Shown: positions 1-5,117 of the stretch, piece after piece
Numbering within the stretch: position 1 is the stretch's first letter
Layout: each line of letters opens with the position of its first letter
Source of the DNA: a bacterium
Lineage (GTDB): Bacteria > UBP7 > UBA6624 > JBBIMK01
Length of the DNA stretch: 5,119 bases
Direction of reading: 5' to 3'
NCBI GenBank assembly: GCA_037444445.1
Contig: JBBIMK010000012.1
Location: forward strand, 20,957-26,075
Translations under genes and position numbers: made by a program
The notes under the pieces: model-generated
What the model was told of the DNA's origin: nothing
Database searches by the model: none
The model's input: the letters and a program-made list of their open reading frames with translations, nothing else

Positions 1-1706
1 GGGTCCACCCAGATGCCGTAAGCGTTGGTGCCCGTTCCGCCGGTGATGGTGTTGTCGTAAATCAGCGGGGCGGAGCCGTTGGAGGATTTCACGCCCACCG
101 AGGTGGTGGTGCCACCGCCGGAGGGGTCGCCTCCATCTATCGTATTATCCCGGATTTCCGGATTGGTGCCTGCATCTGCATTGAGAATGCCAGTGGTAAC
201 GGACCCTGCAACCCCGCCATGGATAGTATTCTCCACGATAAGTGGAGAGGCGCCAGCCAGGTTCTGTATCCCTATGCTTTGAGAAGCAGGCCCGGTGGCA
301 TTCCCGCCGGTAATGTCATTCCTGGAAATGGTGGGGCTACTATTTAAGTTAGTGATGGCAGCACTTGCTGCAACGGTCGCATCATCTCCGTTGAGTTGGA
401 GTTGCTCAATCAGAACGGCGGGAGAAAGGCCCAGGGTAGTGATGGCGGGTCCTCCAAGCCCTTTGATGACTGCGTTGAGCGTGCCCACCGGCAGGCGCGA
501 GAGGCAGAAATCGAACCAACCGCCGAGGAGGGAAACATCGGTGCCATTGGCAGCAGACAGGGTTATGGATTCGTGGTATTCCAGCGGGGGACCGAATGGA
601 AGACCGTCGATACGAATGGCGCCAATGCGAGGCAGGCTCGGGTTCATATTATTTGCGGAAACGACTTGCAGAGCGCGGTTTATCGTCTTGAACGGATTCG
701 CGGAAGAGCCGTCGCCCGTGGCATCGTCCCCGTTGATGCCGTCCACGCACAGGAAGCGGTCGGCATCCACTAACTTCACAGTGATGGAGAGGTTCTTCGT
801 GGTTGTTTCCGCAGGGGTGTCGCAATCGGTGACGCGCACGAGGAAGTCGTAGGTTCCCGGTGTGGTCGGCGTTCCCGTTATGGAGCCATCCGGGTTCAGC
901 GTCAAACCGGGCGGGAAGAAGCCGCTCTCAAACGCCAAATTATACGGAGGACCGGCGACGCACGGCACGCCGCCCTTCGCCTGCAACTGCTGGGAATAAG
1001 GCATGCCCACCTCGGCGTCTGGCAGAGGGGATTCGGTGGTAATCTGCAAGGGGTCAATGCAGGTAATCGTGAGCGATTGCGCATCGGACGCGGGCGGGAA
1101 CTGACTGTCAAAGACGCGCGCGGTGAAGGTGTAGGAACCGGTCGTGGTCGGCGTCCCTTCTATTTTGCCCGCCGTCTGGTTCAGGCTCAGCCCCGGAACG
1201 AGGTTGCCATCCATACTCCAGGTGTACGGCGGAAGGCCGCCGGTCACGAGGATTTCCGCCATATACGGCACGCCAACTTTGCAGGTCGGGAGCGTGGTAA
1301 TCGTGATGTTCAGTGGCCCGCCGGTGCCCGTCGGCGGTCCCACATTGATGGTGTATGAGCGCGACTCTTCACGCTGGGGCAAGTTGGAATCGCGCACGAC
1401 CACCGTGAAAGTGTAGGTCCCCTGCTGAATCGGCGTTCCATAAACCCGCCCGTTCGCTGGCTCAAACTGCAACCCGGGCGGCATATTGCCAATCAGACTC
1501 CAGAAATACGGCGGTTTCGCCTGGTTCGTCGTCCAGCGGAAGGAGAGGTTATACGGAGTGCCGACGAAAGCCGCAGGCGCGGTGGGCGGCTCAATGTTGG
1601 GCGAAGCCCCCGGCGGATAGGAGACCGGCGGACCTCCCCCCTCGCAAGATGTCAAAACGCCCAAAATAGCGAAGAAGAACGCACCATACACCCAAAATTT
1701 CCTCAT
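1..1706 (-). CDS. Secreted lipoprotein, partial (C-terminus cut by the window edge): signal peptide + lipobox, 3 tandem He_PIG/cadherin-like Ig domains, then a right-handed parallel beta-helix (DUF1565/PbH1-like) region
   Basis: Hand translation of the reverse complement from ATG at 1706..1704 gives 568 sense codons with no stop down to nt 3. It begins MRKFWVYGAFFFAILGVLTSCEGGGPPVSYPPG and ends ...PLIYDNTITGGTGTNAYGIWVD. The ORF is missing from the track only because it has no stop inside the window. An AGGAGG SD lies 8 nt upstream. The motif VDGINGDDATGDGSSANPFKTINRALQ is the typical entry motif of DUF1565/pectate-lyase-fold proteins. Confidence 0.85.
   Translation of the reverse strand, partial: MRKFWVYGAFFFAILGVLTSCEGGGPPVSYPPGASPNIEPPTAPAAFVGTPYNLSFRWTTNQAKPPYFWSLIGNMPPGLQFEPANGRVYGTPIQQGTYTFTVVVRDSNLPQREESRSYTINVGPPTGTGGPLNITITTLPTCKVGVPYMAEILVTGGLPPYTWSMDGNLVPGLSLNQTAGKIEGTPTTTGSYTFTARVFDSQFPPASDAQSLTITCIDPLQITTESPLPDAEVGMPYSQQLQAKGGVPCVAGPPYNLAFESGFFPPGLTLNPDGSITGTPTTPGTYDFLVRVTDCDTPAETTTKNLSITVKLVDADRFLCVDGINGDDATGDGSSANPFKTINRALQVVSANNMNPSLPRIGAIRIDGLPFGPPLEYHESITLSAANGTDVSLLGGWFDFCLSRLPVGTLNAVIKGLGGPAITTLGLSPAVLIEQLQLNGDDATVAASAAITNLNSSPTISRNDITGGNATGPASQSIGIQNLAGASPLIVENTIHGGVAGSVTTGILNADAGTNPEIRDNTIDGGDPSGGGTTTSVGVKSSNGSAPLIYDNTITGGTGTNAYGIWVD
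3..338 (-). repeat. Parallel beta-helix coils (about four 28-32 aa turns) at the truncated C-terminal end of the lipoprotein
   Basis: Periodic motif sP-x-I-x-x-N-x-I-x-GG: SPTISRNDITGG.., SPLIVENTIHGG.., NPEIRDNTIDGG.., APLIYDNTITGG.., each followed by a Gly/Thr/Ser-rich turn and a short hydrophobic strand. Confidence 0.6.
777..1577 (-). repeat. Three tandem protein-level repeats (~80-90 aa each) of a putative Ig (He_PIG / dystroglycan-type cadherin-like) domain inside the lipoprotein CDS
   Basis: The pattern hydrophobic-G-x-PY ... GG-x-PPY-x-W/F-S ... PPGL-x-L/F ... G-x-I/V-x-GTP-x-x-x-G-x-Y-x-F-x-V-x-V-x-D recurs three times. Copy 1: VGTPYNLSF..KPPYFWSLIGNMPPGLQFEPANGRVYGTPIQQGTYTFTVVVRD. 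Copy 2: VGVPYMAEI..GGLPPYTWSMDGNLVPGLSLNQTAGKIEGTPTTTGSYTFTARVFD. Copy 3: VGMPYSQQL..GPPYNLAFESGFFPPGLTLNPDGSITGTPTTPGTYDFLVRVTD. Confidence 0.7.
1644..1706 (-). other. Lipoprotein signal peptide with lipobox L-T-S-C (Cys21 is the predicted lipidation site)
   Basis: Basic N-terminus (MRK), hydrophobic core FWVYGAFFFAILGV, then LTS|C, which fits the [LVI][ASTVI][GAS]C lipobox. A Gly/Pro-rich linker (EGGGPPVSYPPGASPNIEPPTAP) follows. Confidence 0.75.
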
Positions 1707-1738: not shown

Positions 1739-1767
1739 ATTTTATTATAAAGACACAGGTCTGTCAA
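1739..1767 (-). promoter_or_regulatory. Sigma70-type promoter for the lipoprotein gene: -35 TTGACA, 17-nt spacer, -10 TAAAAT
   Basis: The minus strand reads cgcTTGACAgacctgtgtctttataaTAAAATcc. -35 = 1767..1762 and -10 = 1744..1739. It sits in an AT-rich stretch about 35 nt upstream of the start codon. Confidence 0.55.
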
Positions 1768-2102: not shown

Positions 2103-2498
2103 CTACTCTTTGGGCGCCGGTCGCGCAAAAATGTCCGCCAATCGCACCTTTACCGCCTCAATTTCAAATGGCGTCAGTTTGTCCACAAAGTCCACGAGGA
2201 GGTCCTTTCGCACGGGCTGGAGGAGCGAGAGGACGATACGCGAGTCTTGGAGACGCGGATGGTTGGTTCGTAAGATGGTGACATCGTGGTATTTGTCAAA
2301 GTAGTCCATCTGAGTAGAGAGCGGTGCGATCAGGACCGTTGGCTGTTGAGGGTCGACTTTCAAGATGAAATCGCTGGTGAGGACGGCGACCGGTCGTGTA
2401 GTATGAGGGGTACGCGCGCCCCGTCCCGGCATCACGATGTCAGCGTCCCGTGCCAGCCAAATCTGACCCTGCTCCAGATGGATATGGGGCTGTTTCAA
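2103..2498 (-). CDS. MazF/PemK-fold toxin (putative sequence-specific endoribonuclease), 131 aa, TTG start
   Basis: By eye it aligns along its length with E. coli MazF. GQIWLA matches GDLIWVDF. TRPVAVLTS matches HRPAVVLS. VLIAPLSTQ matches LCVPCTTQ. The C-terminal helix LTPFEIEAVKVRLADIF matches VAPEELQLIKAKINVLIG. Equivalents of the MazF catalytic residues R29 and T52 are present (R35, S61/T62). It overlaps the upstream gene by 4 nt (TTGA). Confidence 0.8.
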   Translation of the reverse strand: MKQPHIHLEQGQIWLARDADIVMPGRGARTPHTTRPVAVLTSDFILKVDPQQPTVLIAPLSTQMDYFDKYHDVTILRTNHPRLQDSRIVLSLLQPVRKDLLVDFVDKLTPFEIEAVKVRLADIFARPAPKE

Positions 2499-3142
2499 TC
2501 GGGTGAGGCGCTAACCGAAGCCCTCAGGGGCTTCGTCTCCTCGTAAAGGGGGTCCAGCGCGCCAGTAGGCTCTTCGCCTCGTGGCAGAACCGTCTTTACG
2601 AATCCTTCCCATTCCGAAGCAAACCGGCGGAGGCCCGCTGGGCTCTTGAGCCGTTCAAACTCAATCAAATCGCCTTTTCGCGCAAGAACAACGGGCGGCA
2701 GGGTGTAAACAAGATTCATCGCCTGGTCCGGGCGCAAGCGACCCACAAGCCGAATGACTTCGTCGAGGATTTCTTTGGCCTCCGGGGAGAGCGACACCTT
2801 ACACGCGTGTCGGATGCGATGGAGCGAGCCCTTGTGGCTACCCTCCGATTCGTATGACACCCTTTCCAGAAGCCCCTCAATCTCCAATTCTTCTTGCGCT
2901 TCCCGGAGCCGCTCAGAGTATGGCCCATAATGATGCATCCTGAACGATGTGCCCGTCAGCGTATACCCATGCCTGAGAAAGTGGAGCCAGTCCGCAAGGA
3001 ACATCATCTTCTGGAACTTTACCTGCCCCTGCCGGTACGGTGCCCGACTCCAGAGGTAAAGGATCGCCGCTTTCAAGGGGTCTCTTATCGTCCGTTCAGG
3101 CTGGGGCTTTTGCTTTTCCATAGGTGCGTCCTTCAACCCCAT
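2495..3142 (-). CDS. Panacea-domain (DUF4065, SocA/GepA-like) protein, putative antitoxin, 215 aa
   Basis: The core KFQKMMFLADWLHFLRHGYTLTGTSFRMHHYGPYSERL matches the DUF4065 signature (K-x-x-K-hydrophobic-x-Y/F-h-A-D ... G-x-x-h-T-G ... a-Y-G-P-h). The downstream LSPEAKEILDEVIRLVG matches the second conserved helix region of that family. ATG at 3142, with AAGGAAGAG 4 nt upstream. Its position immediately upstream of a toxin-fold gene, with overlap, fits an antitoxin. Confidence 0.8.
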   Translation of the reverse strand: MGLKDAPMEKQKPQPERTIRDPLKAAILYLWSRAPYRQGQVKFQKMMFLADWLHFLRHGYTLTGTSFRMHHYGPYSERLREAQEELEIEGLLERVSYESEGSHKGSLHRIRHACKVSLSPEAKEILDEVIRLVGRLRPDQAMNLVYTLPPVVLARKGDLIEFERLKSPAGLRRFASEWEGFVKTVLPRGEEPTGALDPLYEETKPLRASVSASPD

Positions 3143-3146
3143 TTTA

Positions 3147-3155
3147 CTCTTCCTT
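3147..3155 (-). promoter_or_regulatory. Shine-Dalgarno AAGGAAGAG for the Panacea-domain gene
   Basis: The minus strand reads ccgcTAAGGAAGAGtaaaATG. The TAA here is also the stop codon of the upstream 55-codon ORF. Confidence 0.6.
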
Positions 3156-3321
3156 AGCGGGCCCGAATCACGAGGCGAGTGAACGTCCCCGCGCCACCTT
3201 GCTCGCCCTCTCCCGTATTCTTGGGTTCCTCAGCGATAAATTCAGCCCCCCATCTCCGGCACTCGCCGCGGGCGTTCGGCGTGTGGGTGTAAAGGGAGAT
3301 TTTTGTTTCTGTTGACATCAT
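3154..3321 (-). CDS. Candidate small ORF (55 aa, hypothetical), possibly the first gene of the toxin-antitoxin operon
   Basis: Hand translation gives MMSTETKISLYTHTPNARGECRRWGAEFIAEEPKNTGEGEQGGAGTFTRLVIRAR*. It falls below the 60-aa cutoff of the ORF track. The first ATG (3321) lies 6 nt downstream of the predicted -10 element. No SD precedes it, so the mRNA could be leaderless. Its stop codon is embedded in the SD of the next gene. I recognise no family and have no independent coding evidence. Confidence 0.3.
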   Translation of the reverse strand: MMSTETKISLYTHTPNARGECRRWGAEFIAEEPKNTGEGEQGGAGTFTRLVIRAR

Positions 3322-3340
3322 CTTATTACGATACCATAAA
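3312..3340 (+). promoter_or_regulatory. Weaker divergent promoter-like element: -35 TTGACA, 17-nt spacer, -10 CATAAA
   Basis: The plus strand reads gTTGACAtcatcttattacgatacCATAAAatc. The -35 is perfect, but the -10 lacks the conserved final T. Its -10 abuts the -10 of the minus-strand promoter. Confidence 0.25.
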
Positions 3341-3356
3341 ATCTGGAATTTTGCAA
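3328..3356 (-). promoter_or_regulatory. Promoter-like element for the minus-strand operon: -35 TTGCAA, 17-nt spacer, extended -10 TGgTATCGT
   Basis: The minus strand reads ggcTTGCAAaattccagattttaTGgTATCGTaataagATGATG. -35 = 3356..3351 and -10 = 3333..3328. I found no better promoter-like match between here and the ATG at 3142. Confidence 0.45.
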
Positions 3357-3387: not shown

Positions 3388-3553
3388 CTCCTCGCTGATT
3401 CAATTCTTCCCTCATTGAGTGCTGTCGTATTCAGGGGGGCGCGAATCCACACAGGAAGACTTCACGCTGTGAGGGACGCAGACGGTGGCCGAGCCAGGTG
3501 CGGAGTTTATCCCGTCGCTCGCGGTGAAGTCAATGCGATAAACGCATCCACCG

Positions 3554-3575
3554 TTTGGTGCCTGACCCCAAAAGG
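3554..3575. repeat. Copy 1 of a perfect 22-nt direct repeat TTTGGTGCCTGACCCCAAAAGG
   Basis: Identical to 5096..5117. It ends 7 nt upstream of the -35 hexamer of the ALDH promoter. It contains an internal TTTGG/CCAAA inverted pair. Confidence 0.95.
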
Positions 3576-3584
3576 GGGCATTTT
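3563..3584 (+). terminator. Weak terminator-like hairpin: TG(a)CCCC-aaaag-GGGGCA followed by TTTTG
   Basis: Read directly: a 6-bp stem with one bulge, followed by a run of four T. The 3' arm is not conserved in repeat copy 2 (GGTG...), which weakens a terminator interpretation. Confidence 0.2.
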
Positions 3585-3610
3585 GAAAAGCGAGGCGGAT
3601 GCATTAGAAT
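3583..3610 (+). promoter_or_regulatory. Sigma70-type promoter for the aldehyde dehydrogenase gene: -35 TTGAAA, 16-nt spacer, -10 TAGAAT
   Basis: The plus strand reads ttTTGAAAagcgaggcggatgcatTAGAATaagg. The -10 ends 37 nt before the ATG at 3648. Confidence 0.5.
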
Positions 3611-3630
3611 AAGGGTAGACGGCTATGACA

Positions 3631-3635
3631 GGGAG
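3631..3635 (+). promoter_or_regulatory. Shine-Dalgarno-like GGGAG for the aldehyde dehydrogenase gene
   Basis: GGGAGtgacgatagattATG. The 12-nt spacer is on the long side. Confidence 0.35.
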
Positions 3636-3647
3636 TGACGATAGATT

Positions 3648-5090
3648 ATGGCAAAGTTCTGGATAGCGGGTGAGTGGGCGGATTCCGAAGGAGGCGACAT
3701 AATGGAGATACGCAACCCCGCCACCGGTGAGGTAGTGGACAGGGTTCCTTATGGCACTGTCAAGGATGTCCGAAAGGCGATTGATTCAGCAGTGGAAGCC
3801 TTTCCCGGGTGGGCAGAAGCGCCTCCTTTCAGGAGAGCCTCCATCCTGAACAGGGCTGCGAGAATGGTCCGGGAGTCAGAGGAGGAACTCTCCGTTCTTT
3901 TAACGAAGGAGCAAGGGAAGCCGAGGAAGGAATCCATGGCGGAACTCCGGAGGTTTGCCAGCACGCTGGAGTATTACGCTGGCTACTGGGCGTATATGAG
4001 AGGGGGGCAAATCCCGCTACGGGATGCTGACAGAACGGGGTTGATTCTCAAGCGTCCGGTGGGCGTCTGTGCTGCTATCGTGCCGTGGAACTTCCCCGTC
4101 TCATTGATGGGGAATAAAATTGCACCGGCTCTGATAGCGGGGAATACGGTAGTGGTGAAGCCAGCCAGCACTACACCTCTCACCGCCATCCGCTGTGTGG
4201 AAATCCTGAACAAAGCGGGGCTTCCTCCCGGCGTTCTGAATATCGTCACCGGGTCCGGAAGCGTGGTGGGAGAGGAGCTTTTAAGGAACCCGAAGGTGCG
4301 GAAAATCGGGTTCACCGGTGAGACGGCAACGGGAAAGCATGTGATGTCGGTGGCGGCGCGAGAAATCAAGCGTGTTACCTTAGAGTTAGGGGGTTCCGAC
4401 CCGATGATTGTGTGCGACGATGCGGACCTGGATGAGGCGGTGAAAGCCGCCGCGGTGGGCAGATTCTTTAACTGCGGGCAAGCCTGCCTCGCCGTCAAAC
4501 GCCTTTACCTGTTTGAAAAAATTGCGGATGCTTTCATAGCAAAGCTGGTGGAACGGGTGAGACGGCTCAAACTCGGAAACGGACTGGAAGAAGGGGTTCA
4601 GATGGGACCTCTTCACACCTACAAGCAGAGGGAAGAAGTGGAGAGGCAGGTGGAGGATGCCATCCAGAGGGGGGCAAAGATTCTCATCGGCGGCGAGCGC
4701 CCCACGGGTGAAGAATTCAGAAAAGGCTTCTTCTATATGCCCACCCTTCTGGTGAATGTGAGCGAATCTTCCTGCATCGTTCAGGAGGAGTGTTTCGGTC
4801 CTGCCCTTCCCATCTTCCGAGTCAAAGACCTGAAAGAAGCCATACAAAAGGCAAACAACTCCATCTACGGTCTGGGGTCTTCCATCTGGACCCGGGATTT
4901 AGCCAGAGCCACAGAGGCGGCGGAGCGGCTGGAAGCCGGCTACACCTGGGTCAATTCCCCACCCACCATCTATGACGAACTTCCCTTCGGTGGGTTCAAA
5001 CACAGCGGGCTGGGGAAAGAACACGGCATAGAAGCACTGGAACATTATGTAGAAACCAAATCCGTCGTCCTCACCACGCGGAAAAAATGA
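3648..5090 (+). CDS. NAD(P)+-dependent aldehyde dehydrogenase family protein (PF00171-type), 480 aa; substrate not assignable
   Basis: It is the longest ORF in the window. Canonical family motifs are present: N-terminal FWIAGEW...NPATGE, VPWNFP (Asn148, oxyanion hole), KPAS..TP, the TGSGSVVG cofactor loop, LELGG (catalytic Glu246, nt 4383..4385), FFNCGQACLA (catalytic Cys280, nt 4485..4487), EECFGP and PFGGFKHSGLGKE. Confidence 0.97.
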   Translation: MAKFWIAGEWADSEGGDIMEIRNPATGEVVDRVPYGTVKDVRKAIDSAVEAFPGWAEAPPFRRASILNRAARMVRESEEELSVLLTKEQGKPRKESMAELRRFASTLEYYAGYWAYMRGGQIPLRDADRTGLILKRPVGVCAAIVPWNFPVSLMGNKIAPALIAGNTVVVKPASTTPLTAIRCVEILNKAGLPPGVLNIVTGSGSVVGEELLRNPKVRKIGFTGETATGKHVMSVAAREIKRVTLELGGSDPMIVCDDADLDEAVKAAAVGRFFNCGQACLAVKRLYLFEKIADAFIAKLVERVRRLKLGNGLEEGVQMGPLHTYKQREEVERQVEDAIQRGAKILIGGERPTGEEFRKGFFYMPTLLVNVSESSCIVQEECFGPALPIFRVKDLKEAIQKANNSIYGLGSSIWTRDLARATEAAERLEAGYTWVNSPPTIYDELPFGGFKHSGLGKEHGIEALEHYVETKSVVLTTRKK

Positions 5091-5095
5091 CACGA

Positions 5096-5117
5096 TTTGG
5101 TGCCTGACCCCAAAAGG
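5096..5117. repeat. Copy 2 of the perfect 22-nt direct repeat TTTGGTGCCTGACCCCAAAAGG
   Basis: Identical to 3554..3575. It starts 5 nt after the ALDH TGA stop codon (5088..5090). The window ends 2 nt later, so its full extent is unknown. Confidence 0.95.

Follow-up and report, generated by a model that had tools for sequence, protein, structure and literature searches.

A two-gene operon in a bacterium of the UBP7 lineage very probably encodes a type II toxin–antitoxin (TA) system of the PanAT class, in which a MazF-fold endoribonuclease would be paired with a Panacea-domain antitoxin that, as we propose, would bind it mainly through a C-terminal tail. The operon lies in a stretch of 5,119 nucleotides (nt) (GenBank assembly GCA_037444445.1, contig JBBIMK010000012.1, positions 20,957 to 26,075 of the forward strand), hereafter referred to as the window, and all positions below are those of the window unless a locus is named. 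A first-pass annotation, made from the sequence alone, had drawn attention to the pair, and its coordinates, strand, lengths and quoted peptides are all correct. It had also described a gene for a protein of 215 amino acids (aa) lying directly upstream of the toxin gene and overlapping it, which is indeed the arrangement found: the two genes, here called panA and panT, share 4 nt on the same strand. The features on which the argument rests are as follows.

2495 to 3142, minus strand: panA, an ATG-start open reading frame (ORF) for a Panacea-domain antitoxin of 215 aa (Pfam, relatives, AlphaFold)
2705 to 3013, minus strand: Panacea (DUF4065/SocA-like) core of PanA, Pfam-matched residues 44-146 (Pfam)
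2498 to 2647, minus strand: C-terminal tail of PanA, residues 166-215, with predicted helices at 168-185 and 198-209 (AlphaFold, predicted local distance difference test [pLDDT] 66-85)
2507 to 2554, minus strand: tail motif DPLYEETKPLRASVSA, residues 197-212, a candidate toxin-neutralising element (alignments)
2495 to 2498, minus strand: TTGA overlap, in which the TGA stop of panA shares bases with the TTG start of panT (sequence)
2103 to 2498, minus strand: panT, encoding from a TTG start a MazF/PemK-fold toxin of 131 aa (Pfam, profile, AlphaFold/Foldseek)
2394 to 2396, minus strand: Arg35 codon of panT, aligned with the MazF catalytic Arg (hidden Markov model [HMM] alignment)
2316 to 2318, minus strand: Ser61 codon of panT, aligned with the MazF catalytic Thr (HMM alignment)

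A Panacea antitoxin gene overlapping a MazF/PemK-fold toxin gene

PanA carries the Panacea/DUF4065 core that had been proposed for it, matching Pfam SocA_Panacea (PF13274) over residues 44-146 with an E-value of 1.1e-12 and 49.3 bits (cut-off 25.7), and an exhaustive HMMER search of 1.84 billion representative proteins returned 308 relatives at E<=1e-3. This was the sole Pfam match of the protein, with no AbrB/SpoVT or RHH domain. The AlphaFold model (pLDDT 88.7) places the folded core at approximately residues 17-165. Compared with the folds in the PDB, it gave no significant match, the best being PadR/Pex winged-helix proteins (E 0.03, template modelling [TM] score 0.24/0.46), a similarity that we did not accept as a sign of DNA binding, and the viral models in BFVD yielded modest matches, including a phage protein annotated as SocA-like Panacea (TM 0.62, target-normalised; E 0.023). 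Membership of the Panacea family is therefore based on the sequence profile. Sequence searches of the PDB with the single PanA and toxin proteins returned nothing significant, and a STAT1 match in such a search (E 0.039) was attributed to chance. The public gene call starts panA at the alternative Met8 (position 3121), giving a protein of 208 aa; because the alignable similarity of the closest relative reaches upstream of Met8, the longer form of 215 aa is plausible.

The assignment of the downstream protein to the MazF/PemK family likewise held. PanT matches Pfam PemK_toxin (PF02452) over the whole profile (positions 1-109 of 109; 2.9e-8, 34.3 bits, cut-off 23.1), and a family profile built from five sequences matches solved MazF chains with E-values down to 4e-5. 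An AlphaFold model computed from a 64-sequence family alignment (pLDDT 88, predicted TM score 0.81) shows an SH3-like beta-barrel with a C-terminal helix, which is the MazF fold, and the top 50 Foldseek matches in the PDB are all MazF/PemK-family structures (TM 0.7-0.8, probability 1.00). They come from Bacillus, S. aureus, M. tuberculosis and E. coli, and comprise, among others, 7bxy (8e-8, TM 0.71/0.79), B. subtilis MazF (4mdx) and the M. tuberculosis proteins MazF-mt1 and MazF-mt3. Sequence identity to characterised MazF proteins is about 20%.

When the profile is aligned to S. aureus MazF, Arg35 falls on the catalytic Arg, which is R25 in B. subtilis MazF and R29 in E. coli MazF, and Ser61 falls on the catalytic Thr, T48 and T52 in the same two proteins. 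Each of the two residues is conserved in at least 90% of the 64 family members. The first-pass annotation had seen equivalents of both in the peptides TRPVAVL and PLSTQ; it was right about the Arg, whereas the residue of PLSTQ that aligns with the catalytic Thr is Ser61 and not the neighbouring Thr62. Conserved residues specific to the family are R29, H32, P59 and Q94 (PanT numbering), and the long, family-specific beta1-beta2 loop bears the signature RTxHxxRP, in which R29 and H32 are invariant.

The TTGA overlap between the two genes is consistent with translational coupling, and TA operons usually show an arrangement of this type.

Conservation of the gene pair and of the antitoxin tail

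PanA and its toxin are both singletons at 90% identity in an index of 5.8 billion proteins, and a word-indexed search detected no close homologs beyond the proteins themselves. Their more distant relatives were found in the following arrangements.

L026: antitoxin P0003, with a 57%-identical toxin homolog directly after the antitoxin stop
L029/L030: antitoxin P0005, with a 33%-identical PemK-annotated gene downstream, overlapping by 14 nt
L031: antitoxin P0007, with a toxin homolog downstream
L032: antitoxin P0074, with a toxin homolog of a more distant actinobacterial subclade downstream
L033: antitoxin truncated by the contig end, with a toxin homolog downstream
L034: antitoxin near-identical to P0004, with a toxin homolog downstream

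Thus, a Panacea antitoxin stands directly upstream of the closest toxin relatives in all five other distinct loci (L026, L029/L030, L031, L033 and L034, all of them metagenome contigs), and the spacings between antitoxin and toxin in the relatives are -14, -11, -1 and +7 nt. With both Pfam matches above their cut-offs, the pairing of Panacea with a MazF-like toxin is well beyond chance; the survey of homolog neighbourhoods that the first-pass annotation had recommended found it kept in the loci of the relatives, apart from an orphan copy of P0004 that is taken up below. A profile search with the toxin recovered 72 clusters that form two subclades, a small one containing the toxin of the window and a larger, mainly actinobacterial one.

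The toxin homolog in L026 (870-1268) has no ATG, GTG or TTG at its aligned N-terminus, the first ATG lying 18 codons into the alignment, and the gene caller retained 92 aa; this gene may use a non-canonical start or be a decaying copy.

A profile scan of genome contigs with the PanA alignment returned distant Panacea proteins only, none of them with a toxin homolog, and is uninformative on the subfamily of the window. It did reveal a different conserved arrangement. In at least 20 of the 25 loci concerned (L001-L025, mostly metagenome-assembled genomes of Dehalococcoidia), the gene for a distant Panacea protein (about 170-200 aa) directly follows one for a protein with HD and HD_assoc_2 domains (about 435 aa), the gaps ranging from -56 to +37 nt and the match lying at about position 8000 in each, which amounts to a conserved pair of HD phosphohydrolase and Panacea. 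In the archaeal loci L003 and L018, Panacea is paired instead with a ParE/RelE-like toxin of 84 aa.

Conservation in the antitoxins extends beyond the core. The relatives that align with PanA over its full length, tail included, are P0003 (47% identity), P0004, P0005, P0007 and P0074, and none of the five PanA relatives paired with the toxin family lacks the tail. Across six antitoxins of the window subclade, with overall identities of 25-47%, the tail motif follows the pattern DPL[FY]xxTxPLRxS[AV], its L, P, L and R being invariant. The nearest Panacea protein without a tail, P0006 (158 aa), neighbours an unrelated protein of 111 aa in a phage-like neighbourhood. A tail of about 50 residues rich in Pro, Glu and Ser had been pointed out as a possible toxin-binding or degron segment; its composition is as described, yet it is predicted to be largely helical and not disordered, and its conservation fits toxin binding.

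The sister subclade offers a second view of the antitoxin C-terminus. Scanning metagenomes with the toxins of the actinobacterial subclade gave 17 loci, which were analysed together with L032 and L035. A Panacea-containing antitoxin lies directly upstream of the toxin in 11 of the scan loci as well as in L032; the remaining actinobacterial loci encode a Panacea-less antitoxin of about 100 aa and an extra gene for a protein of about 120 aa. An HMM trained on the Panacea-less antitoxins (99-126 aa) detects the C-terminal 55 or so residues of those that contain Panacea, with E-values from 2.5e-22 down to 1e-3. Within this subclade, therefore, the C-terminal module travels with the toxin independently of Panacea.

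The loci without Panacea form a three-gene variant (L035 3335-4372; also L036, L037, L038, L041/L042 and L052), consisting, in this order, of the protein of about 120 aa, the Panacea-less antitoxin of about 100 aa with the C-terminal module, and the MazF-like toxin. The gene for the protein of about 120 aa is confined to these loci, and its product has no Pfam match.

Proposed mode of neutralisation and competing explanations

In the mechanism that we propose, the panT product would be a MazF/PemK-fold endoribonuclease, probably dimeric, that cuts RNA and thereby blocks translation, its catalytic residues being Arg35 and Ser61. Expression of panA would be translationally coupled to that of panT through the TTGA overlap, and PanA would neutralise the toxin by direct protein–protein binding. 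The contact would be made mainly by the two-helix tail (approximately residues 166-215, with DPLYEETKPLRASVSA), which would fill the RNA-binding groove of the toxin in the manner of MazE C-terminal segments, the globular Panacea core serving as an accessory scaffold or sensor. What the analysis shows is the identity of the two domains, the fold of the toxin and the conservation of its catalytic residues, of the gene pair and of the tail motif; RNase activity, toxicity, neutralisation and the part of the tail in it are inferred.

As the tail motif is conserved, the actinobacterial module travels with the toxin and the tail-less P0006 has another partner, the tail is indicated as the toxin-specific element and most likely as the neutralising one; the comparison of these antitoxins suggests that Panacea is accessory and that it is the tail that neutralises. 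That the two-helix tail is moreover a previously undescribed portable MazF-neutralising element, an analogue of the MazE C-terminus that swaps between Panacea and non-Panacea scaffolds, can be put forward only tentatively. The modestly novel lead at this locus is the conserved tail as a candidate for such a portable module.

Several observations speak against the proposed arrangement or parts of it. The tail of the window could not be tied to the actinobacterial module, as an HMM search linking the two was not significant and hhalign aligned 12 columns (E 0.045, probability 1%), and a profile of the tail found no match among the solved structures in the PDB, MazE chains included. The tail helices in the model of the PanA monomer are predicted with moderate confidence and might do no more than pack against the core. 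At the level of the operon, a promoter and terminator scan gave no above-threshold site for panAT, and no autoregulatory DNA-binding domain was found in PanA with Pfam. Finally, in two contigs of 1.66 kb carrying P0004 (L027 115-1394 and L028 151-828), the toxin gene is missing; because the near-identical antitoxin in L034 does have a toxin, we read P0004 there as an orphan copy. In L027, P0004 is preceded at a distance of 140 nt by a gene for an HNH endonuclease, and in L028 the antitoxin is followed by a convergent membrane-protein gene.

The missing link between the tail of the window and the portable actinobacterial module also leaves room for an alternative that we regard as rather unlikely, namely that the TA module is the same but the toxin is bound and neutralised by its Panacea core ('conformational neutralisation'); another role would then fall to the tail, for example as a protease degron or in dimerisation or DNA binding. 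A standalone Panacea domain does neutralise directly in the PanAT pair of B. choladocola (PMC10440598), and the tail is rich in Pro, Glu and Ser. However, ClpXP and Lon are dispensable for neutralisation by PanA (Kurata et al., PMC8832971), outside the core, conservation is highest in the tail motif throughout the antitoxins paired with the toxin clade, Panacea-less antitoxins suffice in related loci, and the nearest Panacea protein lacking a tail has a different partner.

A further possibility is compatible with tail-mediated neutralisation and concerns the biological role: the module might serve primarily in anti-phage abortive infection, with Panacea sensing a phage cue and releasing the RNase. 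A sensor role for Panacea has been hypothesised by Ernits et al. (PMC10440598), the closest relative, L026, adjoins HARE-HTH, N6/N4 methyltransferase and ResIII helicase genes, and L035 is surrounded by genes for a transposase, a recombinase and a D5-primase. Because some relatives have such methyltransferase/helicase or transposase neighbours, a defence role for the module is possible, but as its primary function we consider it improbable. The first-pass annotation had named the operon a candidate for phage defence or abortive infection, and the locus lends this no support: no relevant PADLOC family was recovered, the matches being weak (for the antitoxin, the Panacea-like portion of DarG and the candidate PDC-M19A; for the toxin, PglX at 0.0055), relatives are absent from phage records, plasmids and IMG/VR contigs, and the window, whose composition is unremarkable, holds no integrase or other mobile-element gene and no other defence gene.

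It is very improbable that both ORFs are a decayed or non-functional remnant. The TTG start of the toxin gene, which lacks a clear Shine–Dalgarno sequence, the L026 copy without a canonical start and the orphan antitoxin in L027/L028 might be taken as signs of decay, but neither ORF is disrupted or shortened in comparison with its homologs, both retain the conserved residues, and coupling of the TTGA type is, as said, common among TA operons. Least probable of all is a downstream protein of MazF/CcdB fold that is no RNase, for instance a gyrase poison like CcdB or a remnant that has lost its activity: the two folds are related, similarity to characterised MazF proteins is low and the long beta1-beta2 loop with its invariant R29 and H32 is peculiar to the family, but none of the top 50 structural matches is a CcdB, the PemK match in Pfam exceeds its cut-off and the catalytic Arg and Ser/Thr positions are conserved family-wide. 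A CcdB gyrase poison was rejected on these structural matches and on the significant profile matches, all of which are likewise to the MazF/PemK family.

Genomic setting and place among known systems

The operon sits between unrelated genes, one for a surface protein and one metabolic, as had been described: one flank (3-1706, minus strand) encodes a secreted protein with a signal-peptide-like N-terminus and He_PIG/Ig repeats, and the other flank (3648-5090, plus strand) an aldehyde dehydrogenase (ALDH). Two more features precede panA.

3328 to 3356, minus strand: weak and uncertain promoter-like site, TTGCAA-17-TATCGT, some 190 nt ahead of panA (read from sequence)
3154 to 3321, minus strand: leader region, whose 55-aa ORF stops 11 nt short of the panA ATG (sequence)

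The promoter-like site scores 8/12, which is under the threshold of the promoter scan, and directly precedes the ATG of the 55-aa ORF. We rejected this ORF as a third component of the system, as it has no Pfam match and no homolog in any fetched locus; the region is probably a leader rather than a conserved component. The flanking genes have strong sigma-70-like promoters, TTGACA-17-TAAAAT (1739-1767, minus strand) ahead of the secreted Ig-repeat gene and TTGAAA-16-TAGAAT (3583-3610, plus strand) ahead of the aldehyde dehydrogenase gene, and the scan found no comparable one at the TA operon.

The aldehyde dehydrogenase gene and its promoter are bracketed by a 27-nt direct repeat, CACCGTTTGGTGCCTGACCCCAAAAGG, whose copies (3549-3575 and 5091-5117) are 93% identical. 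The only stretch of the window (3582-5084) that is shared with the related metagenome contig L053, at 88% nucleotide identity, coincides exactly with the segment between them. In L053 this stretch is flanked differently, by a second ALDH gene upstream and by HicBA downstream, and the repeat is absent. The segment bounded by the repeats may be a cassette-like unit, or the repeat a repeated extragenic element. The predicted RNA fold of the repeat is no better than that of shuffled sequence, and the window contains no Rfam family and no tRNA gene.

The first-pass annotation had called the pairing of Panacea with a MazF-like toxin non-canonical. An antitoxin of the MazE type is indeed absent, but the term makes the pairing look newer than it is, as at the level of the class it has been characterised already. 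Scanning 20,209 genomes, Kurata et al. (2022, PNAS, PMC8832971) named the PanA/PanT system, listed PemK among the toxin domains adjoining Panacea and validated two toxins, one from Pseudomonas moraviensis and one from Bifidobacterium ruminantium, for which an EndoA/PemK/MazF fold is predicted. Both inhibit protein synthesis; for the P. moraviensis pair, a direct complex with PanA was shown. In Dataset S1 of the same work, the MazF/PemK-fold clusters T5, T6 and T9 have the antitoxin gene before the toxin gene, gaps of, for example, -4 and -1 and no N-terminal extra domain. The window pair resembles these in its Panacea antitoxin without an N-terminal extra domain, its gene order, its overlapping or near-abutting genes and its MazF-fold toxin, which would be expected to inhibit translation; the likeness is one of architecture. 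It shows those features of the class that sequence can reveal, with a Panacea match above threshold, a co-oriented small partner within 100 nt and a pairing conserved elsewhere, and differs from the published MazF-fold pairs in that its proteins are 90%-identity singletons, the toxin coming from a small family in which a word-indexed search found 72 clusters. In the text consulted (PMC8832971), no mention is made of the conserved motif in the C-terminal tail.

The closest precedent for a neutralising tail is the PanA:Doc pair of Corynebacterium doosanense (Ernits et al. 2023, PNAS, PMC10440598), where two extra C-terminal helices neutralise Doc ('linear neutralisation', Panacea plus Phd-C) and also occur in Panacea-less antitoxins. 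Both antitoxins have a Panacea core followed by two C-terminal helices, and in both cases a C-terminal module is found with or without Panacea, here in the sister toxin subclade. In contrast to the C. doosanense pair, the toxin of the window has the MazF fold, not that of Doc, its PanA tail has no detectable similarity to Phd-C or any solved chain, and neutralisation by the tail is what we infer here.

With the canonical MazEF, PemIK and Kis-Kid modules, the window pair shares the toxin fold, the catalytic Arg and Ser/Thr positions, the antitoxin-first order and the apparent translational coupling, but its antitoxin has Panacea in place of AbrB/SpoVT or RHH and its toxin a longer beta1-beta2 loop with RTxHxxRP. 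An assignment as a canonical MazEF module was rejected because the upstream protein matches Panacea alone in Pfam. SocAB of Caulobacter has the SocA-like Panacea domain in common with the window, which encodes no SocB-like toxin. DarTG was dismissed as well: the C-terminal part of DarG is matched weakly (in NCBIfam, 23.5 bits where the cut-off is 250; 2.2e-7 over profile positions 161-285 in PADLOC), and the window has no macrodomain and no DarT-like ORF.

The locus is one more divergent example of PanAT and, by itself, changes little. Nevertheless, the antitoxins of this small family of MazF-like toxins combine Panacea with a tail, whereas some of those in a related subclade are short, lack Panacea and carry the corresponding C-terminal module. 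This constitutes a natural comparison, which could test the published idea that Panacea is often a sensor or accessory domain and that a linear appendage neutralises, and would extend it to toxins of the MazF type. If the proposed role of the tail is true, it adds a MazF-specific module to the linear neutralisers Phd-C, ZBD and PAD1, and the operon would provide a compact natural pair for separating the proposed sensor role of the Panacea core from neutralisation.

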